A DNA stretch of 64,000 nucleotides from Patescibacteria group bacterium (GCA_034678605.1 JAXDBQ010000032.1:40265-104264); one strand, 5' to 3'; positions 1,969-53,247 are shown, numbered from the stretch's first letter. Program-made: numbers and translations. Notes: generated by a model not told the origin, from the sequence alone.

Positions 1969-2141
1969 ACGATTTAAATTCAAGCACGAAGCACGAATAT
2001 TCGAAATTCGAAACAATATCAAAATCAAAAATTTTCAAAAATCAAAAAACGAGCGTGCATTTTGTTTTGGAAATTATGATTTTGGAAATTTGATATTATT
2101 TCGGATTTCGAAATTCGATATTCGGATTTCCCGAATTTATC
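1969..2141. repeat. Family-1 palindromic intergenic element (cgaatattcgaaattcgaaacaatatc ... cgaaattcgatattcggatttc) lying between the two virB4 fragments
   Basis: Arms are inverted copies of the motif seen at 8 other loci in this window; 173 bp, not a multiple of 3. Confidence 0.65.
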
Positions 2142-2801
2142 CTATTGGATCAATTCGGGCGGGATTTCCGGATAATATCCCCTTTCCGAGTCCTCCAAGT
2201 GATGCGTGCTCCACAAAAATTCGGCGATCTCCAAACTGTTGAGCGGCACGCATTGCAGGCCGCACCGCCGCAGGCCCAAGGCCACGAATTCCATTCGTTG
2301 CAGCAATTGGGATTTTCCCTGGTTGAATTGGTCGGCCGCCGCTTGGGCGATTTTGGCCCGGTCGGCCGGAGACACTTTCCCCTTTTTTGCTCCGGCCGGC
2401 GCCACGCCGGGCAGGATAATCTGTTGAAACGGCACCGTCACATAGAATGATTTGTTCATGATGGTGCCGCCCGAAACGATTTCGTTGATGAAATTGCGGT
2501 ATTCGATGATTTGGGCGCGCAAAAGATCGTTGCTTTGTTTGGCTTCAAGGTCGCTTAATTTGTCCAGATAGCTGGTGATGTTGAGCCGCCGGCTTTGGAT
2601 GGTGATCTGGATGGGAAAATCCATCGAGTTAAGAAAGTTTTGGAACTGGCCGATGACGGCGTTTTGTTCCTCTTCGGCCATGAGCGCGAAATTGATGGAA
2701 TTGACCATCATTATCCCCCGCAGGCCTTTGTTTTTCAAAACCAAAATCCCCTCTTTGATCTGGTCGATTTCCAAAAATTGTTGAGTCGATAGAATTGCCA
2801 T
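2142..2801 (-). CDS. virB4: VirB4 N-terminal domain fragment (split gene or pseudogene)
   Basis: 219 aa; block ILVLKNKGLRGIMMVNSINFALMAEEEQNAVIGQFQNFLNSMDFPIQI matches the conserved N-terminus of Gram-positive/CPR VirB4 (TraE/PrgJ-like); ends 113 bp upstream of the ATPase ORF. Confidence 0.55.
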   Translation of the reverse strand: MAILSTQQFLEIDQIKEGILVLKNKGLRGIMMVNSINFALMAEEEQNAVIGQFQNFLNSMDFPIQITIQSRRLNITSYLDKLSDLEAKQSNDLLRAQIIEYRNFINEIVSGGTIMNKSFYVTVPFQQIILPGVAPAGAKKGKVSPADRAKIAQAAADQFNQGKSQLLQRMEFVALGLRRCGLQCVPLNSLEIAEFLWSTHHLEDSERGYYPEIPPELIQ

Positions 2802-2913
2802 GATAAAAGTTTAAAGCGTAAAGCGCAAAACTTAAAAGAAAAAATGCGGATTATTAAAAGTGTTAAGCGAATTTGTATTTTACTTTACGCTTTTCGCTTT
2901 ACACTTTACGTTT
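2802..2913. repeat. Family-2 A-rich repeat (AAAGCGTAAAGCG / CGCTTTACGCTTT units)
   Basis: gtttaaagcgtaaagcgcaaaac ... ctttacgcttttcgctttacactttacg. Confidence 0.6.
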
Positions 2914-3330
2914 TTAAGCGGTTTCCAACCAGTCGCGGATCTTTTGGACATTGTTTTTGGCGGGGGCGGCGTTGATGGCCACGGTGGTCGGGGCTTTTTG
3001 GAAAACGATCTTTTCTCGCGCCACCACATGCTGGTTGGGGTTTTGAAAGCTTTGCCACAAAAAAATGCGCGGCGCCATTGAAAAAACAAAAAAATGTTGG
3101 ATTACTTTGACAATGTCGATGCCGTCGATCTTCACGAAGGCCAGGGCGCAACAGCCGCCCATGACGATGGCGATCAGCGCCAAGGCCAGCGGCATCACCG
3201 CTTTGCCCAGGGAAAAATAAATGGAAAACGACAGCACCGTGCCCACCGCCACGAACACGAATTGCTTGAAAGTGAGCGGCCCCACCACCTTGGACTCCAT
3301 CTCGATGAATTGCGGAATGGTGAAATTCAT
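2914..3330 (-). CDS. PrgI/VirB3-like small two-TM membrane protein
   Basis: 138 aa, two hydrophobic helices (VFVAVGTVLSFSIYF, LALALIAIVMGGCCALAF), lies immediately upstream of VirB4 as PrgI/VirB3 does in Gram-positive T4SS. Confidence 0.5.
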   Translation of the reverse strand: MNFTIPQFIEMESKVVGPLTFKQFVFVAVGTVLSFSIYFSLGKAVMPLALALIAIVMGGCCALAFVKIDGIDIVKVIQHFFVFSMAPRIFLWQSFQNPNQHVVAREKIVFQKAPTTVAINAAPAKNNVQKIRDWLETA

Positions 3331-3334
3331 AAAA

Positions 3335-3500
3335 GCGTAAAGCGTAAAGTGAAAAGCGCAAAGTAAGAAATACGGGAAGCGTAAAGCGTAAAGTGAAAAG
3401 CGTAAAGTAAGAAATACGGGAAGCGTGAAGCGTAAAAATTAAAGCGTAAAGCAAGAAACGCAAAGCGAAAAACGAAAAGTAAAATGCGGGCGCGAAAGGC
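3335..3500. repeat. Family-2 repeat with 59-bp tandem duplication (gcgtaaagcgtaaagtgaaaagcgYaaagtaagaaatacgggaa x2.3)
   Basis: Direct reading; the 185-aa track ORF 2906..3463 is a translation of this repeat. Confidence 0.7.
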
Positions 3501-3663
3501 GAAAAAATAAAATCACAAATAAGAATACCAAAGTTGGGGCGCGCTATTTTTTGATTTGAATTTATGTTTTGCGCTTTTCGCTTTACGTTTTTATTATATC
3601 ATCGCCCGCCAAAACCGCAAAACCGCCTTGCGGCGGTTGCGAGCGAGAAGCAACGCGGGATCG

Positions 3664-4695: not shown

Positions 4696-4724
4696 TTGAC
4701 AAAATCACCAAAATATGCTATAAT
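4696..4724 (+). promoter_or_regulatory. Consensus sigma70 promoter TTGACA-17 nt-TATAAT
   Basis: ttgacaaaatcaccaaaatatgctataat; followed by a 5'-UTR hairpin agcgcactaatttgcgct and RBS GGGAGG at 4794-4799. Confidence 0.7.
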
Positions 4725-4805
4725 CCAACCATGATCTTTGCAAAATAGCGCACTAATTTGCGCTCATAATGTATCGATTAGTTGAATGAAAAAGGGAGGT
4801 ATGAT

Positions 4806-5168
4806 ATGGGAATGTATTGGTTAAAATTAAGAGCTGATCTTGCATTAATTATTTGTTGGGTAGCTACGCCGCTGATTACATGGTGGTTGATCGCCAATTA
4901 CTGTTGGCCATGGATGTATGAGGATGATTTGAATTTTATAGAGTCGATCATTCTTTTTGTTCTTGCGATAATCATCATGAGTTATTCATGGCATTATCGG
5001 AAAATCATGCTGGCCGAGTATCGCAGATCAATGGTTAATGCGGGATTGATGTCAGATTGGCGGCCACCCGCACCAACGCAAAAATCAAAGTCGGCCAAAG
5101 AAGCGTTCATCGAAGAAATAATTGCAGAAGTTAAGGAAGAAATTAGCCCAGAAGGAGGTAAAAAGTAA
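4806..5168 (+). CDS. Small two-TM membrane protein, hypothetical
   Basis: Track ORF 4782..5168; ATG at 4806 is 6 nt after GGGAGG; W-rich helices; stop overlaps the next start (TAATG). Confidence 0.5.
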   Translation: MGMYWLKLRADLALIICWVATPLITWWLIANYCWPWMYEDDLNFIESIILFVLAIIIMSYSWHYRKIMLAEYRRSMVNAGLMSDWRPPAPTQKSKSAKEAFIEEIIAEVKEEISPEGGKK

Positions 5169-6340
5169 TGCCATTGCCGATTCCTTCGATCCCATGGTGG
5201 GCAGTTGTTCCATCGGCTGGGGTTGGGGTTGCCGGATTATCCGCTTGGATGGTATGGGACTGGATTCCCAATAAAAGAAAAACTCCCCTTTTCCGCGGAC
5301 AAGATGGTCGTTTCTATTTTATTGCAAGAGGTCAGAATAATTTTAATCCTGTAAGAAAGAATGAGGTTGGCAATGCGGCTGGCCTTGAAACTGACGGGCC
5401 GGTTATTGGTGGCTTTCTTGTTTATAAAGGGTTCCAATATCGGAAACAAGCGGATACAGATGATTCCGATATGATTATTGCCAAGGGATTGGATGATCGC
5501 GGGGTGTTTAATTCTGGTTTGTATTGGATTGGATTATTGGGCGTGGTAAAGATCCATACCAATAAGTGGGAGGAATTCGTAGAAAAAGAAGGCAAACGAG
5601 AATTGGTAACTTTTGTCCGGCGAGAATATGGATTTTCCGCCCAAGTAACAAATATGGGCGGCAGAACGGCTCCGAGCGAAGATAAGGGTAATGTGCCGAT
5701 TGAGATCGATTATGAGATATATTGGCGCATAGAGTGTCCCGACAAAGCGAAGCGCGAAGTTGATGATGCCAACTACAAAGCTATTGGGCTTATAGATGGC
5801 GAAATCGTTGCTTGGATTAACTCGCAAGCTATTTATCGGTTTGAGACCGATACGACGGGCAAGATTGTTGCGGCGAGTATGGATAAGGAGGCGATAAAAG
5901 CAGAATTAATCAAGCATCTTCAAAACAGCAAAGTTTATGCTAGAGTCAGGGAAACATATGGATATCAGATAACGGAGTTTGTGGTCCACGATATTGTTCC
6001 GTTGGGTGAATTCGCCGAATTATTGGCATTAGGGGCGAAAACCGATTTACAAGAAAGCGCAAAATTGAGAAAACTTCAATGGCAGCAAACCCAAGCCGTT
6101 ATTGAAGTTGGTATCCAGGAGCAGTGGGCGCTTTTGTATCGCAACAATCCTGAAGCGGTTGTTAGAGGAATTATTGTTGCGGCAGAGAAACATGGCTTGC
6201 CAATAGTATCTAACACGGTTGAAACACTGTTGAGAGGCGCGGCAAAAGGAGGAGAAGTAATTCCGGCAGAGGATATTGCCAAGATTGCGGCAATGGTTAT
6301 GGGGATGATTGATGAAAGAAACAAAAAACAAATTAAATAA
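5168..6340 (+). CDS. Hypothetical protein with N-terminal membrane anchor (possibly SPFH-like), translationally coupled to 4806..5168
   Basis: 390 aa; N-terminal hydrophobic segment WWAVVPSAGVGVAGLSAWMVW; RBS GGAGG 7 nt upstream; no confident family match. Confidence 0.55.
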   Translation: MPLPIPSIPWWAVVPSAGVGVAGLSAWMVWDWIPNKRKTPLFRGQDGRFYFIARGQNNFNPVRKNEVGNAAGLETDGPVIGGFLVYKGFQYRKQADTDDSDMIIAKGLDDRGVFNSGLYWIGLLGVVKIHTNKWEEFVEKEGKRELVTFVRREYGFSAQVTNMGGRTAPSEDKGNVPIEIDYEIYWRIECPDKAKREVDDANYKAIGLIDGEIVAWINSQAIYRFETDTTGKIVAASMDKEAIKAELIKHLQNSKVYARVRETYGYQITEFVVHDIVPLGEFAELLALGAKTDLQESAKLRKLQWQQTQAVIEVGIQEQWALLYRNNPEAVVRGIIVAAEKHGLPIVSNTVETLLRGAAKGGEVIPAEDIAKIAAMVMGMIDERNKKQIK

Positions 6341-8965: not shown

Positions 8966-9724
8966 TTACCGTTTTTCGATTGGTCTTTCGGTTGTAGCCA
9001 GCGATATTGATTCCATTATTTTATCGACTTCCTGTAAAATTAATGAATCGCTGTTTTGCAAAATTGTGGTAATAATATATATATTATTACCGTTTGTGAT
9101 GATTGCGCTTTTTAATATTAAATTCGTGGCAATATTAGGCGATAACTCAACCAAATCATATTTTATTTCGATCGTTGGGATTATTTGTTCCCCTTTTATT
9201 AACTCTGATTGGGTGATTTTAGCGGCAACGCCTTTTTCTTGGATGTTTTTTTTGTATTGTTCAATAATCGCTTCAGTGCTTGTTGAGTACGATTCTTCCA
9301 CTGTTAAATAATTGATTGCAATTGATGCTGATGAGAGGATGTTTATTTTTTGCGCTGAAAAAAATAATTTGCCGTTGTTGTTGCTTATTTCGGCTTGATT
9401 TGCAATTTCCTGCCAGTCGGAGGGGTAGTCGAAGGAGAAAGAGCTGTCCGGGGCGGTGTAGGTTTTGGTGGAGGTGGCGGCGGAGTCGTTGGCGGCGGCG
9501 GAGTTTTGCTGGTTTTGGGTTTGATTTTGCAATTGGCCTTGGATTTGGCCCATCATTTGGCTCAATTGGTCGTTGGCGTTGGGCATGTTAGTCAATTCTT
9601 GGGGCAGGCCGAATTGCAGGTTTTTCACGTTGGTCTGGAATTGCTGATATTGCCACATCGTGGAGCCCACCAAAAAGGCGATCATTACGAACACGCCGAT
9701 AAGATATAGTTGAACCAATTTCAT
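8966..9724 (-). CDS. Bitopic membrane protein with Q/N-rich linker and C-terminal globular domain (VirB8-like position), hypothetical
   Basis: 252 aa; TM LYLIGVFVMIAFLVGSTMW, then QNQTQNQQNSAAANDSAATST low-complexity, then about 150-aa domain. Confidence 0.45.
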   Translation of the reverse strand: MKLVQLYLIGVFVMIAFLVGSTMWQYQQFQTNVKNLQFGLPQELTNMPNANDQLSQMMGQIQGQLQNQTQNQQNSAAANDSAATSTKTYTAPDSSFSFDYPSDWQEIANQAEISNNNGKLFFSAQKINILSSASIAINYLTVEESYSTSTEAIIEQYKKNIQEKGVAAKITQSELIKGEQIIPTIEIKYDLVELSPNIATNLILKSAIITNGNNIYIITTILQNSDSLILQEVDKIMESISLATTERPIEKR

Positions 9725-9960
9725 AGTAGTAAAATCAATATCGAATGTCGAATATCGAAATCCGAAACAATATCGAATATCAAAATTTTCAATATCAAAG
9801 GGAAAACAGGGGGCGAAATTTTATTTGCGAAAATCAAACAGCCAAATCAATATCGAATGTCGAATATCGAAATCCGAAACAATATCGAATATCAAAATTT
9901 TCAATATCAAAACGAAAACGGGATTTTAATTCAATACAATTAACGCAAAATTAACGCGGA
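9725..9960. repeat. Family-1 palindromic element containing an internal 65-bp direct duplication (period about 116 bp)
   Basis: caatatcgaatgtcgaatatcgaaatccgaaacaatatcgaatatcaaaattttcaatatcaaa occurs twice; only 2 long copies, so not CRISPR. Confidence 0.7.
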
Positions 9961-9972
9961 ATCAATACAAAA

Positions 9973-10335
9973 TCAGTCGGATTTTCTGACGATTGAACCA
10001 AAAATTTTCATCAATTCTTCGGCTTCTCGCAAAAGAATATTTTGTTCTTTTGCCAATTCTTGATTATTGCCATTATCGATCAATTTCAACCAATAACAAG
10101 TTTCTTTGGCTTCTTTGCGGCTGATTTTAACGCGCATATTGAAATCTTTTTTGCTCAACGCTTCGTTGGCTTCGATGTAATTGGCCCCGATTGATCCGGA
10201 AGATCGAGCGAGCTGTTTGATGTCTTCCAAATTTGAAACCGTGCGCGGCAATTTTTTCAAAAACAATCTTGTGTTTTTCGCGAACAAATAAGTTCTTTTT
10301 TCCAAGTTGTATGGTTTTGAATTTGTTTCAGTCAT
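9973..10335 (-). CDS. Four-helix-bundle protein (23S rRNA intervening-sequence protein family)
   Basis: GSIGANYIEANEALSKKDF...ISRKEAKETCYWLKL hallmark; 120 aa; flanked on both sides by family-1 repeats. Confidence 0.8.
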   Translation of the reverse strand: MTETNSKPYNLEKRTYLFAKNTRLFLKKLPRTVSNLEDIKQLARSSGSIGANYIEANEALSKKDFNMRVKISRKEAKETCYWLKLIDNGNNQELAKEQNILLREAEELMKIFGSIVRKSD

Positions 10336-10395
10336 TTGATATTTGAAAATTCGATATTGTTTCGATATTCGAAATTCGATATTCGGATTTGTGTT
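10336..10395. repeat. Family-1 repeat fragment
   Basis: aaaattcgatattgtttcgatattcgaaattcgatattcggattt. Confidence 0.6.
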
Positions 10396-12924
10396 TTAGA
10401 TTTGCCACCATGTTCCCGAGTAGCCGAACAGCGACAGGAATACGCCCACGATCAGCCAGGCAAAGAACAGCAGGCCGTAGCCGATGCCGATTAGTTTCCA
10501 CCAGGAGATGACTTTTTGCTTTAAATCGGGCGTGGAAAAATTGGTGAAAAATATTCCGGCGGTGGCAAGCCCCAAAATGGGCAAAAGCCAAAACGACATT
10601 TGGAACAAGAATAAATTAATGATCTGCATCGCGTTGAGCAAAAGGTGCTTTGCGCCGCATTTTTCGCGGTCATCCCATTCGGTGTTGGGGTTGTCGTTGG
10701 TCATGCCGCACACGGCCATCACTGCCTGCCCTTTTTTGATTTCTTGGCCGCCGGCCACAAAATCAAAGCTCCAAATTTCGGGCGTGGCGCCCGCGTCTTT
10801 GCATTGCGCGTCCAAGCAGGCCAGCACGCTCCATTGGTATTTGCCCAAGCAGAACATCTGGTCGATGTCGTTGTCCACCATTATCGAAGTGTCTTTGACG
10901 ATCTTTTCCACTTTGGGCCCGGGAGCGCAATCTTTATTGGTTTCCTTTTCCGAAACCTCTTTGTATTCCAAGGCGACTTTGTAATAATGCGCGCCGGCCA
11001 CCGGCTGCCACGATAGGTTGTAAGCGATTTGGCTGTTGTCCAGCGTGCTGCTGGCATTGGCCGGCGTTTTGGAGGCACCCAGGGCCGCGGTGGCAAACGA
11101 AAATTCCGGGCCGGCCGGGCCGCAAAGCGCGGCGCTGGCGTCGGCGCAGGTTTGCACTTTCCATTTATAGGATTGTTTTTGGTTGATGGTCGGATAGTCC
11201 AGGGTGTATTGGTTGGTAGCAGTTGTGATCTTTTGGCCGCCAAAATCCAAAATATAGGCCTTGGCGCCGGCAACCGCTTCCCATTGCAATTCAACCGGCA
11301 TGGCTACATCTTTGGCATTGTTGGTCGGTTGCATGGACGCGGTTTTGGGCGCGCGGCCGGTGGTGCGAAAATACCACCAGTCCGACCACGGCTCGTTGCA
11401 CACCTCGCCCACCGGAATTGCCGGCCAGCAGGACTTGGCGCGCCATTTGTAGGCCGTGTCCAATTCCAGTTCGATGTTTTGTTCTTCGCCTTTGGAATTA
11501 TTGGCGTTGCCTTTGGTGAAAAGCACTTGCGAAGTGGTCACGCGGCGTTCGCCGTTGACCAATGAGGTCGCGCCGGCGCCGGAAATTTTTTGAATGTCAT
11601 AGCCATAGGAATTGGCGCCGTTGGGCGCTTGCCATTGCAGGCGGCCGGGAAGTTCGGTGAGCTTGGCGTTTTGGTTGTCGGCATAATTGTTGTCGTTTCC
11701 CGGCGACAAAAGCGCGGGCGCGGGAACGGTTTCGTTTTTATCGGTGAAGGTCCACAACTGCCCCCAATATTTGTCGCTTTGGGTGTTGCAGTTTTCGTCG
11801 CCGGCATTGGTATTGTTGAAACAGCGCCGCAATTGCCAGTAATAGGTGTTGTTTTTGGTGAACAGCGCCCGGTCGGTGTTGGGCAATTGAAGGTGCGACC
11901 ACCAATAGCAATCGATAGCGGGGTTGTTGGCCAAGCATTTAACGTTTCTTGGGGTTTTGGCCTTGATGGGATTGACTACGTCGGCCTTGCAGGTGTTGTT
12001 GGTTTGTTTTTCCAGATAATGGCAGGCCAGCGGGTTTTTCAGCGCCGGCGTGTCTTTTTTGAGCCAATTGGCCAAGTCGCTGAATTTGGCCGGGATTTGC
12101 GCGCCGGTGAGCACCAATTGGTTTTCGTTGGTGTAGACGCGCATTTGGTATGACAGCGAATAGGGCTCGTTTTCGTTATAGGGCTGTTTTTCTTTTGAGA
12201 CCTGCGCGTGGCACCAATCCAGCCGCAGGTTTTTGTAGGAAATATTTTTGGCGCCGGCCGGGCCGTTCCAATCGGGATCGTCAAAATTTATCGGTTCGGG
12301 CGCCGGGCTGGTGCGAAAGGTCCACCAAGTGGCGTTTTCTTCGGGCTGGCAATAGGAGCCGTTTTCCTTGCAACACGGCCGCACGCGCCAACGGATGGTT
12401 TTGTCGGAGTTGTAAAAGCAGGGGTAATACAAATCCCGAGCGTTGAACTCGTTGGTGGTGAGGATTCGGCGGAAAATGCCGCCTTTGCTTTCGTCGTCGT
12501 TTAGTTCGCCGTTTTTGTTTTCGATCTCCAAAAGATAGGAGCGCGCGCCATAGGCCTTGGAGGTGGCGGCTTGGTTGCCCTGGCGGCCGTCCCATTCCCA
12601 ATGGTATTGGCCGTTTTCCAATTGCCACAAGGCGATGTGATCCCAGGCCAGCACCACCGGCAAAGTAACTTCGTTTTCGTTGGCTTGTTTGGTTTTGTTC
12701 ACCGGATCATCCAAGTAATAATGGCCGGGCGGGGTTTTTAAACAAGCGTTGGCGCAAATGCAGGTGGTCACGTCAACTTCCACCACATTGGTCATGGATT
12801 GTTTTTGTTCGGGCTGGCATTGAATGCCGCCGGCGATTGTGGCGCCGCAACCGCTTTCGGCGATCGCCGCCGCCGGCGCGATCAACGCCAGCGCCAGCGC
12901 GAGTTTGAAAAAATTGGTTTTCAT
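10396..12924 (-). CDS. Giant secreted surface protein: signal peptide, tandem FN3-like disulfide-containing repeats, C-terminal VirB2/TrbC-like two-TM pilin domain
   Basis: 842 aa; signal MKTNFFKLALALALIAPAAAIA; about 6 repeats with Y.W.V..C....C....W.F.T signature; C-terminus LLPILGLATAGIFF...KLIGIGYGLLFFAWLIVGVF is paralogous to the C-terminus of 13136..16084. Confidence 0.7.
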   Translation of the reverse strand: MKTNFFKLALALALIAPAAAIAESGCGATIAGGIQCQPEQKQSMTNVVEVDVTTCICANACLKTPPGHYYLDDPVNKTKQANENEVTLPVVLAWDHIALWQLENGQYHWEWDGRQGNQAATSKAYGARSYLLEIENKNGELNDDESKGGIFRRILTTNEFNARDLYYPCFYNSDKTIRWRVRPCCKENGSYCQPEENATWWTFRTSPAPEPINFDDPDWNGPAGAKNISYKNLRLDWCHAQVSKEKQPYNENEPYSLSYQMRVYTNENQLVLTGAQIPAKFSDLANWLKKDTPALKNPLACHYLEKQTNNTCKADVVNPIKAKTPRNVKCLANNPAIDCYWWSHLQLPNTDRALFTKNNTYYWQLRRCFNNTNAGDENCNTQSDKYWGQLWTFTDKNETVPAPALLSPGNDNNYADNQNAKLTELPGRLQWQAPNGANSYGYDIQKISGAGATSLVNGERRVTTSQVLFTKGNANNSKGEEQNIELELDTAYKWRAKSCWPAIPVGEVCNEPWSDWWYFRTTGRAPKTASMQPTNNAKDVAMPVELQWEAVAGAKAYILDFGGQKITTATNQYTLDYPTINQKQSYKWKVQTCADASAALCGPAGPEFSFATAALGASKTPANASSTLDNSQIAYNLSWQPVAGAHYYKVALEYKEVSEKETNKDCAPGPKVEKIVKDTSIMVDNDIDQMFCLGKYQWSVLACLDAQCKDAGATPEIWSFDFVAGGQEIKKGQAVMAVCGMTNDNPNTEWDDREKCGAKHLLLNAMQIINLFLFQMSFWLLPILGLATAGIFFTNFSTPDLKQKVISWWKLIGIGYGLLFFAWLIVGVFLSLFGYSGTWWQI

Positions 12925-17133: not shown

Positions 17134-18204
17134 ATGGATATTAAGCTTCAATTAAGGAATTTTGCCAAACTTCTCCTCATCGGAGCGGTTTTGTTTACCG
17201 GATTTTTTGCCGCCTCTCATCAGGCGGTTCGTTGCGTGTCGGCCAAAAGCGAGCCGGTTTGCCAAGCCGACACCGTCGAAAGGATGTTTGCCAAGGCCGA
17301 CGATCAGCCCAAACCCGAGTCCCCGGGCTATTTGATGGCCGGCGACGCGTGCGTCAAGGCGGTTTTGCCGCCCGCGGCCATCACGCCCAAAATTTTGGGC
17401 GCGATCGTGGGCGATTCCCAGGGATATGTTCAAGAAGAGGATTCTCAAAATACCATCGTTGAATATGAAATTCAACCGGATGATACCATCGCCGGCGTGG
17501 CCCAAAAATTCGGCGTGAGTTCCGAAACCGTGGCTTGGGCCAACGATTTGGCCAAAACCGCGCCGTTAAAACCGGGGCAAAAATTGATCGTTCCGCCGGT
17601 TTCGGGCGTGATCCATTATGTGGTTTTTGGCGACACCATGGACAAAATCGCCCAATCATACAAAGCCGAAGCTGAGGAGATCGTGGCGTTCAACGAGTTG
17701 GCCGGTCAAGATGATATTTTCGTGGGTGATGTTTTGGTGGTGCCCGGCGGCCGGATCGCGCCGCCGCCGGTGGCCAAAAAGCCGGTGGCGTCAAATGCCA
17801 AATCAAGCCCGTCAAAAATCGCGTCGGCGCCGATTGGGCAAGCATTGCCGCAGAATTATTTCCTTTGCCCGGTGGGCCCGGCTTGCAAAAAAACTCAAGG
17901 GTTGCATTTTCGCAACGCGGTTGATTTGACCGGCGGTTATTGCGGCGCGCCGATCTACGCGGCGGCTTCCGGCACCGTCGCCAAAGCCAAAACCGGCTGG
18001 AACGGCGGCGCGGGCAATAACATCGCGGTCTCCCATATGGGCGGCGCGGTGATCACTCATTATTATCATTTGCAATCATTTAACGTGGCCTCCGGCCAGG
18101 AAGTCAAAAAGGGCGATGTTATCGGGTTTATGGGAAGCACCGGCAAATCGACCGGTTGCCATCTTCACTTTGAAGTGATCGGCGGAACCAATCCCTTCAA
18201 TTAA
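17134..18204 (+). CDS. LysM-repeat M23 family metallopeptidase (peptidoglycan hydrolase)
   Basis: Two LysM motifs (DTIAGVAQKFGVS, DTMDKIAQSYK); C-terminal M23 motifs HYYHLQS and HLHFEV; N-terminal TM. Confidence 0.85.
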   Translation: MDIKLQLRNFAKLLLIGAVLFTGFFAASHQAVRCVSAKSEPVCQADTVERMFAKADDQPKPESPGYLMAGDACVKAVLPPAAITPKILGAIVGDSQGYVQEEDSQNTIVEYEIQPDDTIAGVAQKFGVSSETVAWANDLAKTAPLKPGQKLIVPPVSGVIHYVVFGDTMDKIAQSYKAEAEEIVAFNELAGQDDIFVGDVLVVPGGRIAPPPVAKKPVASNAKSSPSKIASAPIGQALPQNYFLCPVGPACKKTQGLHFRNAVDLTGGYCGAPIYAAASGTVAKAKTGWNGGAGNNIAVSHMGGAVITHYYHLQSFNVASGQEVKKGDVIGFMGSTGKSTGCHLHFEVIGGTNPFN

Positions 18205-19938: not shown

Positions 19939-20016
19939 GGAAGCGTAAAGCGTGAAGCGAAAAATACGGCGCCGCGTTTTTGTTTTATGTTTTACGTTTT
20001 TAGTTTCGCGCTTTTT
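19939..20016. repeat. Family-2 repeat (ggaagcgtaaagcgtgaagcgaaaaatacgg ... tttacgtttttagtttcgcg)
   Basis: Direct reading. Confidence 0.55.
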
Positions 20017-37554: not shown

Positions 37555-37626
37555 AATCGATAAAGTCGCGAGCGTTAAAGGCATTTTTATTTTGCGCTTT
37601 ACGCTTTGCGCTTTACGTTTAATTTT
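37555..37626. repeat. Family-2 repeat (tttgcgctttacgctttgcgctttacgttt) upstream of SPFH gene
   Basis: Direct reading. Confidence 0.55.
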
Positions 37627-38478
37627 ATGGCTAATTATCAATCTCAGGAAATCAACGCGGTTTCGGCGCTTTTGTCGCTGATTATCGGCGCGATCGCGTT
37701 GGGGTTTCCGGCCTATGGGATTTGGGGGTGGTTTGGGATCTTTTTGGTGGTGGCGGGATTCGCGTTGATGCTGGTGATCATCGGGTTGCGGGTGATTGAT
37801 CAATATGAGCGGGGAATTGTTTTGACTTTGGGGCAATATTCGGGCACGCGCGGCCCGGGCCTCACCTGGATATTCGTGGGCATTCAACGGATGATCAAAG
37901 TTGATATGCGCATTACCACCGTGGACATTCCGTCGCAGGAAGTGATCACCAAAGATAATGTGCCGGTGGGGATCAACGCGGTGGTTTATTTTCAGGTGGA
38001 GTCGGCCGAGAAATCGATCTTGAATATTAAGGATTACACGTTGGCGGTGGCGCAATACGCGCAAGCGGCGTTGCGCGACGTGATTGGCGGCATCGAGCTT
38101 GATCCGTTGTTGAGCGAGCGGGAAAAAATTTCCGACGCCATCAAACAAATCGTGGATCAGGCCACGACCGGTTGGGGAATAAATGTTACCGATATCAAGA
38201 TTCAAGATATCGAACTGCCCGCGGATATGAAGCGGGTGATGGCCAAACAGGCCGAATCCGAACGCGAGCGCCGGGCAATCATTATCCGCGCCGAAGGCGA
38301 ATTTCAGGCCTCGGCCAAATTGGCCGAAGCCGCCAAGATGCTCACCGAAACCCCGGGGGGATTGTCGATGCGCACTCTGCAAACCATCGAAAAGATTAAT
38401 CCCGATCCGTCAAAGACCGTGATCTTTGCCTTGCCGGTGGAGATCATGGAGGGTTTCAAAAAACTTGCGGGCAAATAA
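37627..38478 (+). CDS. SPFH/band-7 (stomatin/prohibitin-like) membrane protein
   Basis: Track ORF 37606..38478 (its first 7 codons lie in the repeat; start moved to MANYQSQ); SPFH blocks TTVDIPSQEVITKDNVPVGINAVVYF, INVTDIKIQDIELP. Confidence 0.85.
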   Translation: MANYQSQEINAVSALLSLIIGAIALGFPAYGIWGWFGIFLVVAGFALMLVIIGLRVIDQYERGIVLTLGQYSGTRGPGLTWIFVGIQRMIKVDMRITTVDIPSQEVITKDNVPVGINAVVYFQVESAEKSILNIKDYTLAVAQYAQAALRDVIGGIELDPLLSEREKISDAIKQIVDQATTGWGINVTDIKIQDIELPADMKRVMAKQAESERERRAIIIRAEGEFQASAKLAEAAKMLTETPGGLSMRTLQTIEKINPDPSKTVIFALPVEIMEGFKKLAGK

Positions 38479-43894: not shown

Positions 43895-43945
43895 GCCGGA
43901 GGCGCATCCGTCCTCTGGCGGAAAAACTAAAAGTTAAAATACGCG
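43895..43945. promoter_or_regulatory. Copy of conserved GCCGGAGGCGCATCCGTCCTCTGGCGGAAAAA motif (family 7) in divergent rpsT/Mur-ligase promoter region
   Basis: Same motif at 54331 and, inverted, inside family-1 elements at 18263 and 53100. Confidence 0.5.
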
Positions 43946-44003
43946 ACAAGGCAAACTATATCACATTTTTTGATTTTTGCAAGAGTGATTGGTATAATGC
44001 GAT

Positions 44004-46412: not shown

Positions 46413-46465
46413 CTATGCGGCCGGGAATAGTTGATGAGTTGATGAGTTGATGAGTTGATGAGGGA
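46413..46465. repeat. Family-3 tandem repeat (AGTTGATG)x4 directly upstream of tRNA-Cys
   Basis: gggaatagttgatgagttgatgagttgatgagttgatgagggatgagtaaaa. Confidence 0.65.
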
Positions 46466-46487
46466 TGAGTAAAATTCTAATGCAAAT

Positions 46488-46826
46488 TCAGGATTTTTTC
46501 AATTGCTCAAGGAGAGTTTCGACTTGCTGGGCTTGGAAGGGATTTTGGTCGGCGATGAAAATGATCTTGGGCACCGGCCGCATTTTCAGTTTGCGGTCGA
46601 GCGCTTTTTGGAACTCCCAAACCTGGTTTTCCAGCGCGGCCACCACTTGCCTTTGTTTTTGGTCGGGGAGCACGCTCACAAAAACCTTGGCTTCCTGCAG
46701 GTTGCCGCTGGCCTTCACTTTTGTGATCGAGATCAGGGTTTCGCGGTCCGCGCAAAAATCGCGCGCGATCATTTGCGCCAAAACCTCTTTCATCAGTGAT
46801 TCGATTTTTTCAACGCGATGGTCCAT
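46488..46826 (-). CDS. rbfA: Ribosome-binding factor A
   Basis: Track ORF 46488..46871 (its first 15 codons lie in the family-1 repeat; start moved to MDHRVEKIESL); RbfA KH-like domain ETLISITKVKASGNLQEAKVFVSV. Confidence 0.85.
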   Translation of the reverse strand: MDHRVEKIESLMKEVLAQMIARDFCADRETLISITKVKASGNLQEAKVFVSVLPDQKQRQVVAALENQVWEFQKALDRKLKMRPVPKIIFIADQNPFQAQQVETLLEQLKKS

Positions 46827-46980
46827 CTTGGATGCAAATTCGAATGTTCGAATATTCGAAATCCGAAACAATTTTCAAATTCTCAAAATTTTAATTTTCG
46901 AAAAAGAGTCCGTTTAAAAATTTGAACATTTGAAAATTTGGATTTGTTTCGAATATTCGGATATTCGTGCTTCGGATATT
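46827..46980. repeat. Family-1 palindromic element between infB and rbfA
   Basis: aaattcgaatgttcgaatattcgaaatccgaaacaatt ... ttgtttcgaatattcggatattcgtgcttcgg. Confidence 0.65.
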
Positions 46981-48477
46981 TTAGAAATTCTTTTCCTGCA
47001 CATAGAACACCAATTGGTCGCCTTCTTGGACTTTTTGGTCGCCTTCATACAAAATTCCCACTTCATCGCCCTTGCCGGCTTGAGGGATGTCTTTTTTGTT
47101 TTTTTGCAAATTGATCAGCCGGCCCTGGCCGATTAAGTTTTGATTGCGCATGACTTCGATCTTGACGCCTTTCTTAACCTCGCCGTCAATCATTTTCCCG
47201 CCCACGATCTGGCGGTTTTTGTCGGCCCAAAAACTTAACAAAACCTTTAGTTTGCCCAGGTCTTTGCGCGCGATCCGCGGCGTTCTGAATTTTTCCATGT
47301 AGCCGCGGAGCCATTCGATCATTTCATAGATGATTTCAAAATTCATCACGCGGATTTTTTCCCGTTCGACCATGGCTTTGGCGTCGGGGCTGATTTTAAC
47401 CCGAAAGCCAACGATTATGGCGTTGCCGGCGCGAGCGGTTTTGACATCGTTTAAATTGACTTCGCCGGCGCCGGTTTCCAAAATATCCAAAACTACTTCG
47501 GTTTGCGGAATTTGAGAGATGGTTTCTTTGAGCACTTCAATCGATCCCAAGACATCGGCCTTCAAGACGATAGCAAGCGTTTTTTGGCCTTCTTTTGGGG
47601 CCGCGGCAATGGATTGCGGCCGGTTTTTTTTGGCTTCGCGTTGTCGCGCGATCACGAAATCGCGGGCCGCTTCCAAGCTTTCCATTTCTTTGAAAATTTC
47701 GCCCACCACCGGAACCTCGTCCAAGCCGATGGCGATGGCCGGCTGGGAGGAGAAAAGTTTTTCGATCTTACGGCCACGGGTGTCTTCCAGTGATTTGATT
47801 TTTCCCAAAGATGATGTTGTGGCCAAAACTTTGCCGGCAGTTAAAATGCCGTTTTGCAACAAGATGCTGGCGCTGGGGCCGCGGCGGTGGTCAAGCGATG
47901 ATTCAATAATAATCCCTTGCGCGGGCGCGGCCGGATCGGTCTGCAAGTTTTCCATTTCGGCCACCAGCAAGATCATTTCCAGCAAATCATCGATGCCGGC
48001 GCCGGTTTTGGCCGAAACGCTGATCGCGGGCACGTTACCGCCCCAATCCTCCACCAATAAATTTTCTTTTTGCAGATCGCGCTTGACTTTTTCCACATTG
48101 GCTTGCGGCAGATCGGTTTTGTTCATGGCCACAATCACCGGAATGCCGGCATTTTTAATGGCGTTGGCGGCTTCTTTGGTTTGCGGCTTGAAACCCTCTT
48201 CGGCGGCCACCACCAAAACCGCGATATCGGCGATCTTGGCGCCGCGGGCGCGCATTTGCGAAAACGCCTCATGGCCGGGAGTGTCGATGAAGGTGATGGT
48301 CTTGCCGTTGAACTCGGCCACGGACGCGCCGATATGTTGGGTAATGCCGCCGGATTCGCGGTCGGCCACGTGGGTTTTGCGGATATAATCCAAAATCGAG
48401 GTCTTGCCGTGATCGACATGGCCCATTACCACCACCACGGGCGGCCGGGAGATTAAGTTTTTAGCGGAATTATCCAT
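46981..48477 (-). CDS. infB: Translation initiation factor IF-2, short form without N-terminal domain
   Basis: 498 aa; G-domain VMGHVDHGKTS...DTPGHEAF...NKTD, then domains II-IV. Confidence 0.9.
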   Translation of the reverse strand: MDNSAKNLISRPPVVVVMGHVDHGKTSILDYIRKTHVADRESGGITQHIGASVAEFNGKTITFIDTPGHEAFSQMRARGAKIADIAVLVVAAEEGFKPQTKEAANAIKNAGIPVIVAMNKTDLPQANVEKVKRDLQKENLLVEDWGGNVPAISVSAKTGAGIDDLLEMILLVAEMENLQTDPAAPAQGIIIESSLDHRRGPSASILLQNGILTAGKVLATTSSLGKIKSLEDTRGRKIEKLFSSQPAIAIGLDEVPVVGEIFKEMESLEAARDFVIARQREAKKNRPQSIAAAPKEGQKTLAIVLKADVLGSIEVLKETISQIPQTEVVLDILETGAGEVNLNDVKTARAGNAIIVGFRVKISPDAKAMVEREKIRVMNFEIIYEMIEWLRGYMEKFRTPRIARKDLGKLKVLLSFWADKNRQIVGGKMIDGEVKKGVKIEVMRNQNLIGQGRLINLQKNKKDIPQAGKGDEVGILYEGDQKVQEGDQLVFYVQEKNF

Positions 48478-48618
48478 CAGAATTAAATTCGAATATCGAA
48501 TATCGAAATCCGAAACAATATCGAAATTTAAATTTCCAAAACAAAAATTCGAGTTTCGTTTTGGTCATTTGGATTTTGAAAATTCGTGCTTGTTTCGAGT
48601 TTCGACATTCGAGCTTCG
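48478..48618. repeat. Family-1 palindromic element
   Basis: aaattcgaatatcgaatatcgaaatccgaaacaatatcgaaattt ... gtttcgagtttcgacattcgagcttcg. Confidence 0.65.
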
Positions 48619-48987
48619 TTATTTATGTTTTTCTTGGGCGAGTTCGATTGCTTTCTTTTCTTCTTCGGAAAGGGGATAAGTGGAGGCGCCGTTTTCCACC
48701 GGTTTGGCATAGACGCGGTTGCCGTCGCGGGAAAACAAGCTGGTGACTACCGCGCCGTTGCCGTTGCCGTCAAGCATTGCCAAACAAAAACTTTGATTGC
48801 CGCCAAAACCTTCGAATGGGTTAAAGCGGGTGACCGCCACCCGGCTGATATGCTTTTTGTTTTCTTTTTTCAGCGATTTCACTTCCTCGGCCAAGGATTC
48901 GCATTTTTCTTTCACCTCTTTAAACTGCGCCAAGATCTCGGAAATATCCTGCGGCTCTTCATCTTGTTTTTTTTGGAAAAAAGACAT
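48619..48987 (-). CDS. DUF4446-like small protein
   Basis: Track ORF 48619..49278 extends over tRNA-Ser and repeats; plausible start MSFFQKKQ at about 48987; conserved RVAVTRFNPFEGFGGNQSFCLAMLDGNGNGAVV. Confidence 0.55.
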   Translation of the reverse strand: MSFFQKKQDEEPQDISEILAQFKEVKEKCESLAEEVKSLKKENKKHISRVAVTRFNPFEGFGGNQSFCLAMLDGNGNGAVVTSLFSRDGNRVYAKPVENGASTYPLSEEEKKAIELAQEKHK

Positions 48988-48994
48988 CGGGTAG

Positions 48995-49176
48995 TTGATT
49001 AGTTGATGAGTTATGAGTTGATGAGTAAAATGCGAATTCGGAGTTTTTGAATTTTTCTCATTTCTCATCAACTCATTACTCATTTCTATTTCGGGCGGTG
49101 CCCGGTAGTAGATTTTCGGCCGGATTTTTAGCAAAAAATCCGTAATCGCCAAGCGAGCCGAAAATTCACTACCGGG
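48995..49176. repeat. Composite repeat: inverted family-3 TGATGAGT arrays (about 48995..49090) plus family-4 palindrome (49091..49176)
   Basis: agttgatgagttatgagttgatgagt...actcatcaactcattactcat; then cccggtagtagattttcggc-ccggatttttagcaaaaaatccg-taatcgccaagcgagccgaaaattcactaccggg. Confidence 0.65.
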
Positions 49177-49913: not shown

Positions 49914-50010
49914 AAGAGTAGTTGATGAGTGATGAGTTGATGAGTGGTGAGCAAATACGAAATCCCGTATTTTCTCATCAACTCATTTCTCATAAACTCA
50001 TCAACTATTC
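49914..50010. repeat. Family-3 inverted TGATGAGT/ACTCATCA arrays between tRNA-Val and tRNA-Leu
   Basis: gagtagttgatgagtgatgagttgatgagtggtgagc ... ctcatcaactcatttctcataaactcatcaactattctc. Confidence 0.65.
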
Positions 50011-50623: not shown

Positions 50624-50697
50624 TGGGCGTATCCCGATTCGAACGGGAGACCTTTTCAATGTCAATGAAACGCTCTAACCAGCTGAGCTATACGCCC
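50624..50697 (-). tRNA. tRNA-Val (anticodon GAC), CCA encoded
   Basis: GGGCGTATAGCTCAGCTGGTTAGAGCGTTTCATTGACATTGAAAAGGTCTCCCGTTCGAATCGGGATACGCCCA. Confidence 0.85.
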
Positions 50698-50787
50698 GGT
50701 GAATAGTTGATGAGTTAATGAGAAATGAGCCGGTGAGCGAAGCGCATTCTCTCATAAGCTCATTACCAATTTACTCATTTCTACCTC
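50698..50787. repeat. Family-3 repeat arrays
   Basis: gaatagttgatgagttaatgagaaatgagc ... ctcataagctcattaccaatttactcatttctacc. Confidence 0.6.
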
Positions 50788-51148
50788 TGGTGTGCATGGA
50801 TGGGATCGGACCATCGGCCGCAGCTTTATGAAATTGTTGCTACAATTTCCGCCAAAAATAATAATTAATTTGGGCGGTGGGCGCAGATGGACTCGAACCA
50901 TCGACCCCGGCTTTATGAAACCGTTATAGCGGTTTCCGCCATTATTTTAAAAATTCTGGTAGTGGGCGTGGAAGGGATCGGACCTTCGGCCCCCACTTTA
51001 TAAGAGTGGTGCTCTAACCACTGAGCTACACGCCCAGAATTTTTAAAATAATGTCATAAGAGCCGTGCTCTAACCGACTGAGCTATGCGCCCAAATTAAT
51101 TATTATTTTTGTCATAAGAGCTGTGCTCTACCACTGAGCTACACGCGC
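50788..51148 (-). other. Nested split-tRNA locus: outer tRNA halves (5' half about 51111..51148, 3' half about 50788..50853) enclose a middle tRNA (5' half about 51053..51092, 3' half about 50872..50940), which encloses an intact tRNA (50963..51035); each insert is flanked by a perfect inverted repeat
   Basis: Middle pair: acceptor GGGCGCA/TGCGCCC and anticodon stem CGGCT/AGCCG are complementary across the pieces; outer pair: anticodon stem CAGCT/AGCTG and acceptor 6/7 bp; inner IR ATTATTTTAAAAATTCT/AGAATTTTTAAAATAAT (17 bp); outer IR AAAAATAATAATTAATTTGG/CCAAATTAATTATTATTTTT (20 bp). Confidence 0.55.
50963..51035 (-). tRNA. Intact innermost tRNA, anticodon UAU (Ile-AUA reading), CCA not encoded
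   Basis: GGGCGTGTAGCTCAGTGGTTAGAGCACCACTCTTATAAAGTGGGGGCCGAAGGTCCGATCCCTTCCACGCCCA; anticodon stem CCACT/AGTGG, loop CTTATAA; T-loop TCCGATC slightly atypical. Confidence 0.6.
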
Positions 51149-51240
51149 AAGACGTAGTCAATGAGTTGTGAGAAATGAGTTGATGAAAAAATACGGGATT
51201 TTGCATTTACTCAATACTCATCAACTCGCCACTCATCAAC
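51149..51240. repeat. Family-3 repeat arrays upstream of the nested tRNA locus
   Basis: gtagtcaatgagttgtgagaaatgagttgatg ... actcaatactcatcaactcgccactcatcaactat. Confidence 0.6.
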
Positions 51241-53062
51241 TATTTTTGATTCCTACCAGTTTTTCGTATTCTTCTTTTTCAATGGTTTCTTTTTCGATCA
51301 GGCGATTCGCGATCTTTTCCAATGTGTCGCGTTTTTCGGCCAAGATCTTTTGCGCGGTGGTTTGGCCTTCTTCGATGATTTTGGCGGTTTCGGCGTCGAT
51401 CTTGGCCGCGGTTTGTTCGGAATAATTGCGGTTGGATTCGAATTCCTGGCCCAAAAACGCCAGTTCTTCTTTTTCACCAAAAACGATCGGCCCCAGCGGC
51501 GACATGCCGTATTCTTTCACCATTTTGCGGGCGATCTTGGACGCCACTTTCAGATCGTTTGACGCTCCGGTGGACGATTGGCCAAAGATTATTTTTTCGG
51601 CGGTAAGCCCTCCCAGCAAGGTGGCAATTTCGGCGACAAAGTCGCTTTTCGACCGCAGTTTCTTTTCTTCGGCCGGGGTTTTTAAGGTGTAGCCGGCGGC
51701 CATTCCCCGTGAGATGATGGATATTTTGCGCACCGGCTCGGTTCCCGGTAAAGAAGATGACACCAGCGCGTGGCCGGATTCATGATAGGCGGCGATTTTT
51801 TTTTCTTCAACTGATAACAAATGGCTTTTCTTTTCCGGCCCCAGCATCACTTTTTCGATTGATTCCAAAAATTCTGTCTGAAAGATTTCGCTTTTGTTTT
51901 GTTTGGCCGCCAATAGTGCGGCTTCGTTGACCACATTGGCGATGTCGGCGCCCGAAAATCCGGGGGTTCGTTCGGCTACTTCCCGCAAGTTCACGTCTTT
52001 GGCCAAGGGTTTTTGCCGGCAATGAATGGCCAAGATCGCTTCGCGGTCTTTGGCGTCGGGCAGATCCAAAATGATGCGCCGGTCAAAGCGTCCCGGCCGC
52101 AGCAGCGCCGGATCAAGATATTCGGGCCGGTTGGTGGCGCCCAAAACGATGATGCCCTCGCCGCTTTCAATTCCGTCCATTTCGGCAAGGATCTGATTGA
52201 GGGTTTGTTCGCGTTCTTCGTGGCCGCCGGTGACGCCCACGCCGCGGGTTTTGCCGATGGAATCAATTTCGTCAATGAAAATTATGGCGCGTTTTACTTT
52301 GTGGGCTTGTTCAAACAAGTTGCGCACCCGGCTGGCGCCCACGCCCACGAACAATTCGATGAATTCCGAACCGGAAATGGAAAAGAAAGGCACATTGCCT
52401 TCGTTGGCGATGGCTTTTGCCAGTAGGGTCTTGCCGGTGCCGGGCAAGCCCATCAGCAGTACGCCGCGGGGGATTTTGGCGCCCATTTTCAGGTATTTTT
52501 CGGGATTTTTTAAAAAATCAATGATTTCTTGCAACTCCTCTTTGGCCTCTTTGAGGCCGGCAATATCGTTGAAGGTGGTTTTTTGTTTTGGATTGCCGCC
52601 TAAAAGGCGGGTTTTGGCTTTGGTAAAGTCGAATGCTTGCATGGCGTTGCCTTTGGCCTGGCGAAAGATCAGCGAAAACACGAATAAGATCAGCAGCAAC
52701 GGCAAGAAGCTGTAAAGCAGGGGCGCCAACCAAATCCAGACGCTGTCGTCGTTTTTTGATTCAAAATTCACCGCGGCGATCTTTTCCTTGTCCACTCCCA
52801 AATTGACCAAGGTTTGCGACAGGGATGAGTCGGCTTCTTTTTTGGCGATGGTGGTGGAAGCGGCCGCGTCGTTGTATTCGACGGTTAATTTTTCGCCGGC
52901 GATTTGGACATTCTTGATCTTGCCTTCGTTGATCTCGGCCGCCAAGCGCGAGAGGGAAATTTCCTCGGGTTTTTGGGAGTTTTGCGAAAACAACGAAAAC
53001 AGACCGGCCAAACCGACCAAAAAAATAACTACCATCGCGAAATTTTTGAAAAAGCCCTTCAT
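51236..53062 (-). CDS. ftsH: ATP-dependent zinc metalloprotease FtsH
   Basis: 608 aa; two N-terminal TM; AAA Walker [14 protein letters not shown]; HExxH as HESGHA. Confidence 0.95.
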
Positions 53063-53247
53063 TTAAAATTCAAGCACGAAGCGCGAAGCACGAAATCCGA
53101 AACAAATTCCGCGCCCGAGGCGCGTCCGCTTTCAGCGGAAAATTTTCAAAATTTAAATATCAAAACAAAAATACGAATTTGTTTTTATCATTTGAAAATT
53201 TGAATTTCGATATTGTTTCGATATTCGATATTCGATATTCGACATTC
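53063..53247. repeat. Family-1 composite palindromic element with central cgcccgaggcgcgtccgctttcagcggaaaatttt core
   Basis: cacgaagcacgaaatccgaaacaaattcc ... ttgtttcgatattcgatattcgatattcgacattc. Confidence 0.65.

Follow-up and report, generated by a model that had tools for sequence, protein, structure and literature searches.

Intervening sequences (IVSs) are sporadic hairpins in bacterial ribosomal RNA (rRNA) genes and have been known since 1990. Those in the 23S rRNA genes of Leptospira, Coxiella burnetii and Xanthomonas carry an open reading frame (ORF) for the S23p protein, an association that Ralph and McClelland reportedly described in 1993. To our knowledge, the four-helix-bundle "23S rRNA IVS protein" family has no known function outside Avd of the diversity-generating retroelements. 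Here we describe family-1, a palindromic repeat present in a 64,000-nucleotide stretch of DNA from a Patescibacteria group bacterium (GCA_034678605.1 JAXDBQ010000032.1:40265-104264; the whole stretch is called the window below). We lean towards reading it as a free-standing, mostly ORF-less lineage of IVS-type hairpin elements, which would be read through from host genes and whose stems would probably be cut by RNase III.

The Coxiella IVS has terminal inverted repeats with a 28-bp terminal stem, carries the heptamer GACAGAT in three to four tandem copies immediately ahead of the S23p ATG, lacks a usable Shine-Dalgarno sequence and is cleaved by RNase III at the first repeat (Warrier et al. 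2016, PMC4990558). Family-1 resembles the S23p-type IVSs in having a PF05635 four-helix-bundle ORF of ~120 amino acids in its loop (in the window, the copy at 9725-10395), terminal inverted repeats predicted to fold into a closing stem, tandem heptamers before the ATG (AAnnnCG four times, as against GACAGAT three to four times in Coxiella), no Shine-Dalgarno sequence, a sporadic and horizontally spread distribution and, in one Saccharibacteria locus (L085), ORF-less copies at 23S rRNA hairpin tips. Unlike those IVSs, it lies mostly between protein-coding or tRNA genes (in the window and at most loci examined), most of its copies are ORF-less and its heptamer has a different sequence; an RNase III step would be carried over by analogy. 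Every sequence-level feature of an S23p-type IVS is found in family-1 except the rRNA location, and the L085 copies have that too.

The window holds 17 family-1 half-arms, which make up eight copies: seven are palindromes of 140-185 bp that lack an ORF, and the eighth is divided by a gene. An arm consists of four tandem AAnnnCG heptamers followed by AAACAA (consensus of the 17 aligned half-arms, AAATYCGAATATCGAATATCGAAATYCGAAACAATATC..TTTTCAAAAT..CAAAACAAA), and the copies occupy the entire spacer from a stop codon to the next start codon. They are listed here with the z-scores of individual folds:

1976-2138, minus strand: copy A, ORF-less palindrome, in the spacer 1969-2141 from the stop of gene 2142-2801 to the VirB4/TraG-like start (z -4.0/-4.3)
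9725-9972, minus strand: 3' side of the gene-bearing copy, arm tandemly duplicated (9732-9810 and 9844-9922, 96% identical)
9973-10335, minus strand: cargo gene for a 120-amino-acid four-helix-bundle protein (PF05635 23S_rRNA_IVP, TIGR02436)
10336-10395, minus strand: 5' arm of the gene-bearing copy, reading AAATCCG AATATCG AATTTCG AATATCG AAACAA..., up to the ATG at 10335
18205-18389, no strand: copy C, ORF-less, between the convergent M23/LysM and ComM-like genes (z -6.6/-5.9)
18256-18284: GC-rich double hairpin nested in copy C
25846-26005, minus strand: copy D, ORF-less, from the NYN stop to the PNPase start (z -7.9/-6.7)
37346-37505, no strand: copy E, ORF-less, between the divergent RecG and Band7 starts (z -6.0/-4.9)
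46827-46980, minus strand: copy F, ORF-less, from the IF-2 stop to the RbfA start
48478-48618, minus strand: copy G, ORF-less, from the DUF4446 stop to the IF-2 start
53063-53247, minus strand: copy H, ORF-less, from the S1-domain stop to the FtsH start
53111-53138: GC-rich double hairpin nested in copy H

Family-1 is present at all nine sites where the initial annotation had placed repeats, and a profile built from the arms finds 16 arms in the window, every one at those sites. Two of the nine, 9725-9960 and 10336-10395, had been taken for separate elements and are instead a single copy whose duplicated 3' arm and 5' arm surround the gene at 9973-10335; within a third, 18205-18414, family-1 accounts for 18205-18389, and 18390-18414 is a separate small GC hairpin beside copy C. 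The pattern CGAANNNCGAANNNCGAANNNCGAAACAA, with up to two mismatches, matches 13 times in the window against 0.01 expected, and none of 100 shuffles reaches 13. All copies fold as a long imperfect hairpin on either strand (z -3.1 to -7.9), and arm profile, pattern counts and folds together bear out the description of a discrete, multi-copy, palindromic, non-coding element. Seven of the eight copies directly abut a stop codon, as had been noticed, the exception being copy E between divergent starts; the neighbouring genes form six co-directional minus-strand pairs, one convergent and one divergent. The suspicion that arms give rise to false ORF extensions was also correct (for example, the ORF 7..2028). 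A role as terminators had been suggested, yet no U-tract (no T-run in the DNA) follows the AT-rich stems of 60-70 bp, and the copies are therefore not intrinsic terminators; a terminator scan of the copies picked up only the nested GC hairpin of copy H. Neither a scan nor direct reading revealed consistent promoter-like hexamers in the arm ends, a permissive Rfam scan of one copy returned only generic long-hairpin (miRNA-precursor) matches far under threshold, and literature searches with the arm sequence gave chance primer matches only.

The cargo protein of the gene-bearing copy matches PF05635 "23S rRNA intervening sequence protein" (Pfam, E 4.7e-13) and TIGR02436 "four helix bundle protein" (NCBIfam, E 5.3e-18), and is related to the solved structure PDB 2rld (E 2.6e-9). 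Its family is very large, with at least 7,993 sequences in a word-index search and 5,221 clusters at 50% identity (E <=1e-3). In the predicted RNA fold of 9840-10396, the 5' and 3' arms pair with each other and enclose the ORF, whose AUG comes to lie where their stem ends on the inside. The same palindrome occurs on a high-GC Gemmataceae contig (L119), with a loop gene 62% identical to that of the window, as a 498-bp unit that starts 5 nt past the stop of one gene and ends just before the next start.

A metagenome scan with the cargo protein retrieved 80 loci at 57-70% identity, 76 of which have room on both sides of the gene. Family-1 arms flank both sides in 34 of these 76 by a scripted test, and ~15 further loci, counted by eye, have an upstream arm overlapping the gene start, which brings the total to ~49. 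Thirty loci are in exact register: their units are mostly 463-484 bp long (~472 bp typical, full range up to 631 bp), with the ATG at element position 41 and ~70 nt after the gene stop. Some 20 loci lack family-1 arms and have the same layout written in different heptamer dialects, namely AAATCCT/AGGATTT (CT), AAnnnCC/GGnnnTT (CC) and AAATAAC/GTTATTT (AC); both arms always switch together, and AAACAAAT..ATGACCGAA is retained. The layout is also kept by four distant homologues (50-65% identity to a query that shares 44% identity with the window protein), among them SecA-four-helix bundle-GatB and Fer-four-helix bundle-GltB arrangements.

The full unit accordingly reads as a 40-nt 5' arm (four AAnnnCG heptamers plus AAACAAATnCAA), directly followed by the ATG of the 120-amino-acid gene, and a ~70-nt 3' arm that is the inverted complement of the 5' arm together with the first codons of the gene. 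These codons, ATGACCGAAATTCAAAAC, are the segment that the arms of ORF-less copies retain: such copies keep both arms including ATGACCAAAATTCAA, a remnant of the start of the gene. ORF-less copies are therefore internal-deletion derivatives, 100-250 bp long, of the gene-bearing unit. Separately, the five metagenomic loci L127, L142, L180, L181 and L186 have a CT-dialect gene-bearing element at what is apparently one shared junction, after the stop of leuC and before the start of leuD, judging from the flanks. The Shine-Dalgarno-like AAGAGG of leuD is retained downstream of the element, and the arrangement looks as if a single insertion had been passed down within an entire lineage.

The Saccharibacteria metagenome-assembled genome (MAG) locus L085 contains five family-1 copies within 3.4 kb. 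Its segment 3425-6545 is a 23S rRNA gene (Rfam LSU_rRNA_bacteria, 1318 bits), and four ORF-less copies lie inside this gene. Three of them could be mapped and replace rRNA hairpin tips at model positions ~160-170, 283-290 and 583; the first and third correspond to what we take to be helices 9 and 25, classical IVS sites. For these helices as IVS sites we relied on the literature cited in PMC4990558. In the window, copies lie between protein genes and none is at a 23S rRNA helix tip. Two further segments of the L085 23S gene (4716-4853 and 5911-6044) share 87% identity and match each other in inverted orientation as well, which suggests insertions of another family, and after position 6450 the rRNA sequence gives way to unrelated sequence.

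An exact scan of one genome per species, using a pattern with 20 specified bases, found at least 120 matching stretches, whose phyla were mapped from the record names. Among the matches listed, they come from at least ten phyla: Planctomycetota, Verrucomicrobiota, Desulfobacterota, Omnitrophota, Acidobacteriota/Aminicenantes, Nitrospirota, Binatia, Calditrichota, Bacteroidota and Proteobacteria, as well as several classes of the candidate phyla radiation (CPR). Mis-binning cannot account for this breadth, since some of the matches are on contigs of 0.5-1.6 Mb. Most of the matches listed form plus/minus pairs, and 94 of the 97 paired elements measure 97-248 bp (median near 150). The outer ends, AAATYCG...CGRATTT, are very sharply defined: across 162 arms, A occupies positions -5 to -3, ahead of the first TYCG, in 99%, 96% and 88%, and from -6 outward the sequence is random. 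Exactly four heptamers precede AAACAA, the inner arm reads ..CRAATGACCAAAATTCAAATGTTCAAAAC, and a decaying 7-nt periodicity runs for ~nine units. Target-site duplications are absent: of 94 copies, 61 share no flanking base and the remainder fits chance. Flank complementarity, examined as a sign of insertion into pre-existing hairpins, is only weakly raised overall (2.97 versus 2.59 of 10), an effect driven mainly by the L085 rRNA copies and a few others. In IMG/VR, the family-1 pattern also occurs on 26 predicted viral contigs (L202-L227), most of 51-68% GC, ~15 of which have complete ORF-less palindromes; as carriers of the gene-bearing form they were discarded, since they hold ORF-less copies only and no close four-helix-bundle homologue.

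Copies in other phyla are placed much like those of the window. Where both neighbours of an ORF-less copy could be classified, 25 pairs are co-directional, 13 convergent and one divergent, and elements most often begin 0-10 nt past the stop codon. Gene-bearing copies have the orientation of the upstream host gene in 56 of 62 cases and that of the downstream gene in 41 of 52. Since copies follow a host stop and share the orientation of the host gene, these data fit an element without a promoter of its own that depends on read-through.

Four relatives (L228-L231; IF-2 74-80% identical) share the order S1-FtsH-L19-DUF4446-IF2-RbfA with the window, and their junctions are filled or empty as follows:

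IF2→RbfA: window, 154 nt, family-1; L228, 1 nt, empty; L229, 127 nt, family-1; L230, 114 nt, palindrome of another dialect; L231, 13 nt, empty
DUF4446→IF2: window, 141 nt, family-1; L228, 91 nt, other dialect; L229, 99 nt, other dialect; L230, family-1, its arm supplying the DUF4446 stop codon; L231, 3 nt, empty
S1→FtsH: window, 185 nt, family-1; L228, 83 nt, non-repeat with a TTGACT-17-TATAAT promoter; L229, 105 nt, short family-1 copy; L230, 20 nt, empty; L231, junction outside the locus

No target-site duplication is seen at these three junctions. The IF2→RbfA copies of the window and L229 are orthologous, with rare 8-base units and the order of units in common. Between the two, the arms are identical at 31 of 34 and 33 of 37 positions and the centre, which contains a deletion, at 32 of 42, whereas identity at 4-fold degenerate sites in the flanking genes (IF-2, RbfA and FtsH) is only 39-47%. 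Because arms ~90% identical stand beside such diverged synonymous sites, the arm sequence is under purifying selection where it sits. The outer arms also keep 34-38% GC in hosts of 36-72% GC, whereas the centre tracks the host, from 33% to 55%. Similarity between copies of a single genome (0.72-0.77) is only a little above that between copies from different phyla (0.65), and the window copies (0.61) are no more alike than the latter. This speaks for old copies kept close to a consensus and against a recent burst.

Several other repeat classes share part of this architecture. ERIC/IRU, Correia/NEMIS, RUP and BOX elements are likewise multi-copy, non-coding, imperfect palindromes of 100-250 bp in 3' or inter-cistronic positions, co-transcribed (as family-1 would be) and variable between relatives, with an ORF-less form related to a longer coding form; family-1 differs in lacking target-site duplications, in a coding partner that is not a transposase and in arms made of tandem heptamers, found in at least ten phyla among the matches listed and under purifying selection. 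Repetitive extragenic palindromes (REP/BIME with their RAYT transposases) and the palindrome-associated elements of IS200/IS605 are also intergenic, lack target-site duplications and often follow stops, but their hairpins are GC-rich and 20-40 nt long, whereas family-1 arms are AT-rich and span 60-70 nt; this assignment was rejected, with no Y1 (HUH) gene in the window, random flanks and no conserved flanking tetranucleotide. Integron attC sites were dismissed as well: the ends read AAATYCG...CGRATTT and not RYYYAAC...GTTRRRY, the neighbours are housekeeping operon genes and no integrase is present.

Heptanucleotide repeats occur between genes in cyanobacteria as the STRR sequences. A second such family is TAACTGA, the intergenic heptanucleotide of the Beggiatoaceae (PMC4679880). 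Both share with family-1 a 7-nt unit, an intergenic position often ending near a start codon and presence in distant lineages, but they are direct repeats without a dyad and have no reported link to a four-helix bundle. Avd, a small and basic four-helix bundle, is pentameric and binds nucleic acid. Its gene, mentioned as PF05635 in PMC10053308, belongs to the same Pfam family as the cargo gene; unlike Avd, the cargo gene has no reverse transcriptase, template repeat or variable repeat beside it at the four gene-bearing loci with listed genes. Literature searches for S23p, IVS protein and four-helix bundle, with most subscription-journal papers outside their scope, found no description of free-standing, mostly ORF-less, heptamer-armed elements of IVS type.

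On the reading of family-1 as an IVS-type element, host transcription would read through units placed right after the host stop in the orientation of the host gene, as this placement suggests. Within the transcript the arms would close into the long imperfect stem of the predicted folds and bury the start codon of the cargo gene, so that folding would explain the buried AUG. RNase III would probably cut the arm stem, by analogy with published work on rRNA IVSs; such cutting would make insertion harmless both in operon spacers and at rRNA hairpin tips, and would explain why insertions are tolerated at rRNA helix tips and between cistrons. Given the conservation of arm sequence, ORF-less copies may have been adopted as processing or stability marks between cistrons, or may be useful to the element itself.

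Some of our results weigh against this account. Each heptamer has near-invariant AA and CG and three variable bases between them, and at these variable positions the two arms show no co-variation and match less often than random arm pairs (0.42 versus 0.49, z -3.3). The stem is thus kept imperfect, and what is constrained could be recognition of the DNA or RNA sequence and not pairing. Only 4 of 44 elements have third heptamers of one type in their two arms, so that the stem keeps internal loops. Sense and antisense G-U pairs are balanced (68 versus 70), which marks neither RNA strand as the selected one. Divergence of the cargo protein is the same within and between heptamer dialects (0.672 and 0.669), with no co-divergence beyond shared descent, and lends no support to a protein that reads the heptamers. 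Copy E lies in a divergent promoter region where read-through cannot apply, and no insertion mechanism is evident for family-1. A broader proposal, which we offer tentatively, is that the known rRNA IVSs are only the conspicuous part of a pan-bacterial system in which a heptamer-armed hairpin, with or without the S23p gene, colonises transcribed spacers and RNA hairpin tips in operons, tRNA clusters and rRNA; ORF-less copies would be kept as cut or bound RNA punctuation, and PF05635 would be the element's own RNA-handling factor, possibly for spread at the RNA level.

We consider it unlikely that family-1 is a miniature inverted-repeat transposable element (MITE) moved at the DNA level in trans by a transposase or recombinase encoded elsewhere (IS200/IS605, IS110-like or other), with the four-helix-bundle gene as mere cargo. 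The MITE/REP-like label of the initial annotation captures the small, non-coding, multi-copy palindrome with sharp-ended terminal inverted repeats and the presence/absence polymorphism between relatives; copies also sit at the ends of many short contigs, and both arms switch dialect together, as terminal repeats read by one enzyme would. The label fails on the lack of target-site duplication in the 94 copies, on arms that are 60-70-nt heptamer arrays, unlike the short hairpins of REP type, and on the partner: the uniform, ~472-bp gene-bearing unit encodes a 120-amino-acid protein only, the window encodes neither the IS200/IS605 TnpA that had been proposed as cognate enzyme nor any other transposase, RAYT, reverse transcriptase or RNase III, and no transposase lies beside the four gene-bearing loci with listed genes (the 80 metagenome loci were not scanned for one). 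Within-genome copies are, moreover, old and diverged while their arms are conserved. Slightly less probable still is a signal evolved by the hosts, spread mainly vertically, which would punctuate polycistronic, tRNA and rRNA precursors for processing, stability or termination. The ~90% conservation of arms next to saturated 4-fold sites would suit such a signal, as would the position of elements exactly between cistrons of conserved operons such as infB-rbfA and the two other heptamer families of the window, which bracket the PrgI gene or lie flush with tRNA genes. Close relatives nevertheless have spacers of 1-20 nt without an element at the same junctions, the arms remain AT-rich in hosts of 60-72% GC, and the same element with 62%-identical cargo in a CPR bacterium and in Gemmataceae requires horizontal transfer.

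The invariant AA and CG of each heptamer, with the three bases between them free and uncompensated, the missing RNA strand bias and arm conservation independent of host GC would all be expected of a double-stranded DNA binding array, in which CGAA/TTCG blocks spaced by 7 bp bind a protein, possibly the pentameric four-helix bundle, for transcription control or chromosome organisation and the dyad is incidental. We judge this improbable, because copies inside a 23S rRNA gene need handling at the RNA level, the preference for positions 3' of stops and the avoidance of divergent promoters (1 of 39) fit a constraint on the transcript better, and the protein does not track the dialect. That there is no element at all, only AT-rich low-complexity spacers or heptamer microsatellites born of replication slippage, has a negligible chance of being correct. 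Heptanucleotides are indeed the commonest long simple repeats in many bacteria and can adjoin start codons (PMC4679880), but 13 pattern matches stand against 0.01 expected, 162 arms from many phyla share a sharp boundary and a fixed number and order of units, the same cargo gene turns up repeatedly, and the polymorphism of filled and empty sites between relatives shows that family-1 is more than spacer composition.

The window has a GC content of ~47%, densely packed genes and 11 tRNA genes; it contains no rRNA gene, and an Rfam scan at gathering thresholds returned tRNAs only. Its PNPase protein is a 100% match to a protein on a contig of MAG GCA_964551425.1, and the closest named relatives of its IF-2 and four-helix-bundle proteins belong to Paceibacterota, Yanofskyibacterium and Nealsonbacteria (Patescibacteria/CPR). 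The genes beside the copies are:

7-1968: VirB4/TraG-like gene, start at 1968
2142-2801: gene whose stop borders the spacer 1969-2141
2914-3330: PrgI gene
8966-9724: PsbP-like gene
17134-18204, plus strand: M23/LysM gene
18415-19938, minus strand: ComM-like gene
23740-25845: PNPase gene, start at 25845
26006-26503: NYN gene, stop at 26006
35204-37345, minus strand: RecG gene
37606-38478, plus strand: Band7 gene
46488-46826: RbfA gene
46981-48477: IF-2 gene
48619-49170: DUF4446 gene
51236-53062: FtsH gene
53248-54114: S1-domain protein gene

Consensus-like promoters precede the Mur ligase gene of the window (TTGATT-17-TATAAT, 43970-43998) and ftsH of L228 (TTGACT-17-TATAAT, 2061-2143), each ending 5-6 nt upstream of the ATG, and no Shine-Dalgarno sequence is seen before any gene adjoining the elements; together these features suggest that initiation in the window lineage is leaderless or independent of a Shine-Dalgarno sequence. 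The isoleucyl-tRNA synthetase at 56800-60360 has a His_Phos_1 (histidine-phosphatase) domain inserted between its catalytic segments, and the same insertion is found in L228 (1-433).

The window holds further repeats distinct from family-1. The GC-rich core that had been reported within the copies at 18205 and 53063 and alone at two sites is a real, separate double hairpin of ~30 nt, GCGCCGGAGGCGC-AT-CCGTCCTYTGGCGG followed by an A-run. Two of its four copies are nested in family-1, one of them inverted, and two solitary ones lie upstream of plus-strand genes:

43895-43921, plus strand: solitary GC-rich double hairpin GCCGGAGGCGC-AT-CCGTCCTCTGGCGG, upstream of the Mur-ligase gene
54335-54363, plus strand: solitary GC-rich double hairpin

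The small perfect hairpin at 18390-18414 beside copy C, AAAACCGCCG-TTATT-CGGCGGTTTT, stands between convergent genes and resembles an ordinary bidirectional terminator. A second heptamer palindrome family (AAAGCGT/ACGCTTT; 2791-2916, 3317-3600, 19921-20023, 27568-27640 and 37579-37623) has arms that bracket the PrgI gene (2914-3330), with the left arm triplicated at 3317-3460; beyond the same genome it was found in no other retrieved locus. A third (GATGAGT/ACTCATC, with some 8-base units; 26854-26914, 46441-46478, 48992-49090, 49916-50007, 50694-50790 and 51166-51248), found in no other retrieved locus, lies flush against tRNA genes, and a tRNA-L19-tRNA block is enclosed by long-range pairs of arms, which are 87% complementary over 83 nt and separated by 1170 nt.

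Positions 50789-51146 (minus strand) contain a nested tRNA-Ile(UAU) arrangement of two 5' halves, an intact tRNA-Ile and two 3' halves, the 5' halves each ending in the anticodon loop and the spacers being mutually complementary over 24 nt (100%) and 19 nt. Half 2 pairs through its acceptor with its own 3' half; pairing of half 1 is poor. Neither ARAGORN nor Rfam calls these halves, which may be tRNA genes split in the anticodon loop by inserts bracketed by inverted repeats, or decayed duplicates. A perfect 25-nt inverted repeat and two 95-nt direct repeats, 92% identical and each palindromic (29152-29257 and 29706-30056), are located between tRNA-Pro and an HTH_17 gene, after which come a Fic gene and tRNA-Glu; these repeats may mark the termini of an integrated element.

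Should rRNA IVSs be one of the landing sites of a general inter-cistronic hairpin, the origin of IVSs and the function of their protein would become testable in ordinary operons, with the arms as a defined substrate and the four-helix-bundle protein as a defined partner. In practical terms, the elements cause false N- and C-terminal ORF extensions and break assemblies, and they may account for part of the rRNA insertions reported in CPR bacteria. The ~90% conservation of the arms where synonymous sites are saturated suggests a selfish element turned to host use, which would be notable in such reduced genomes.

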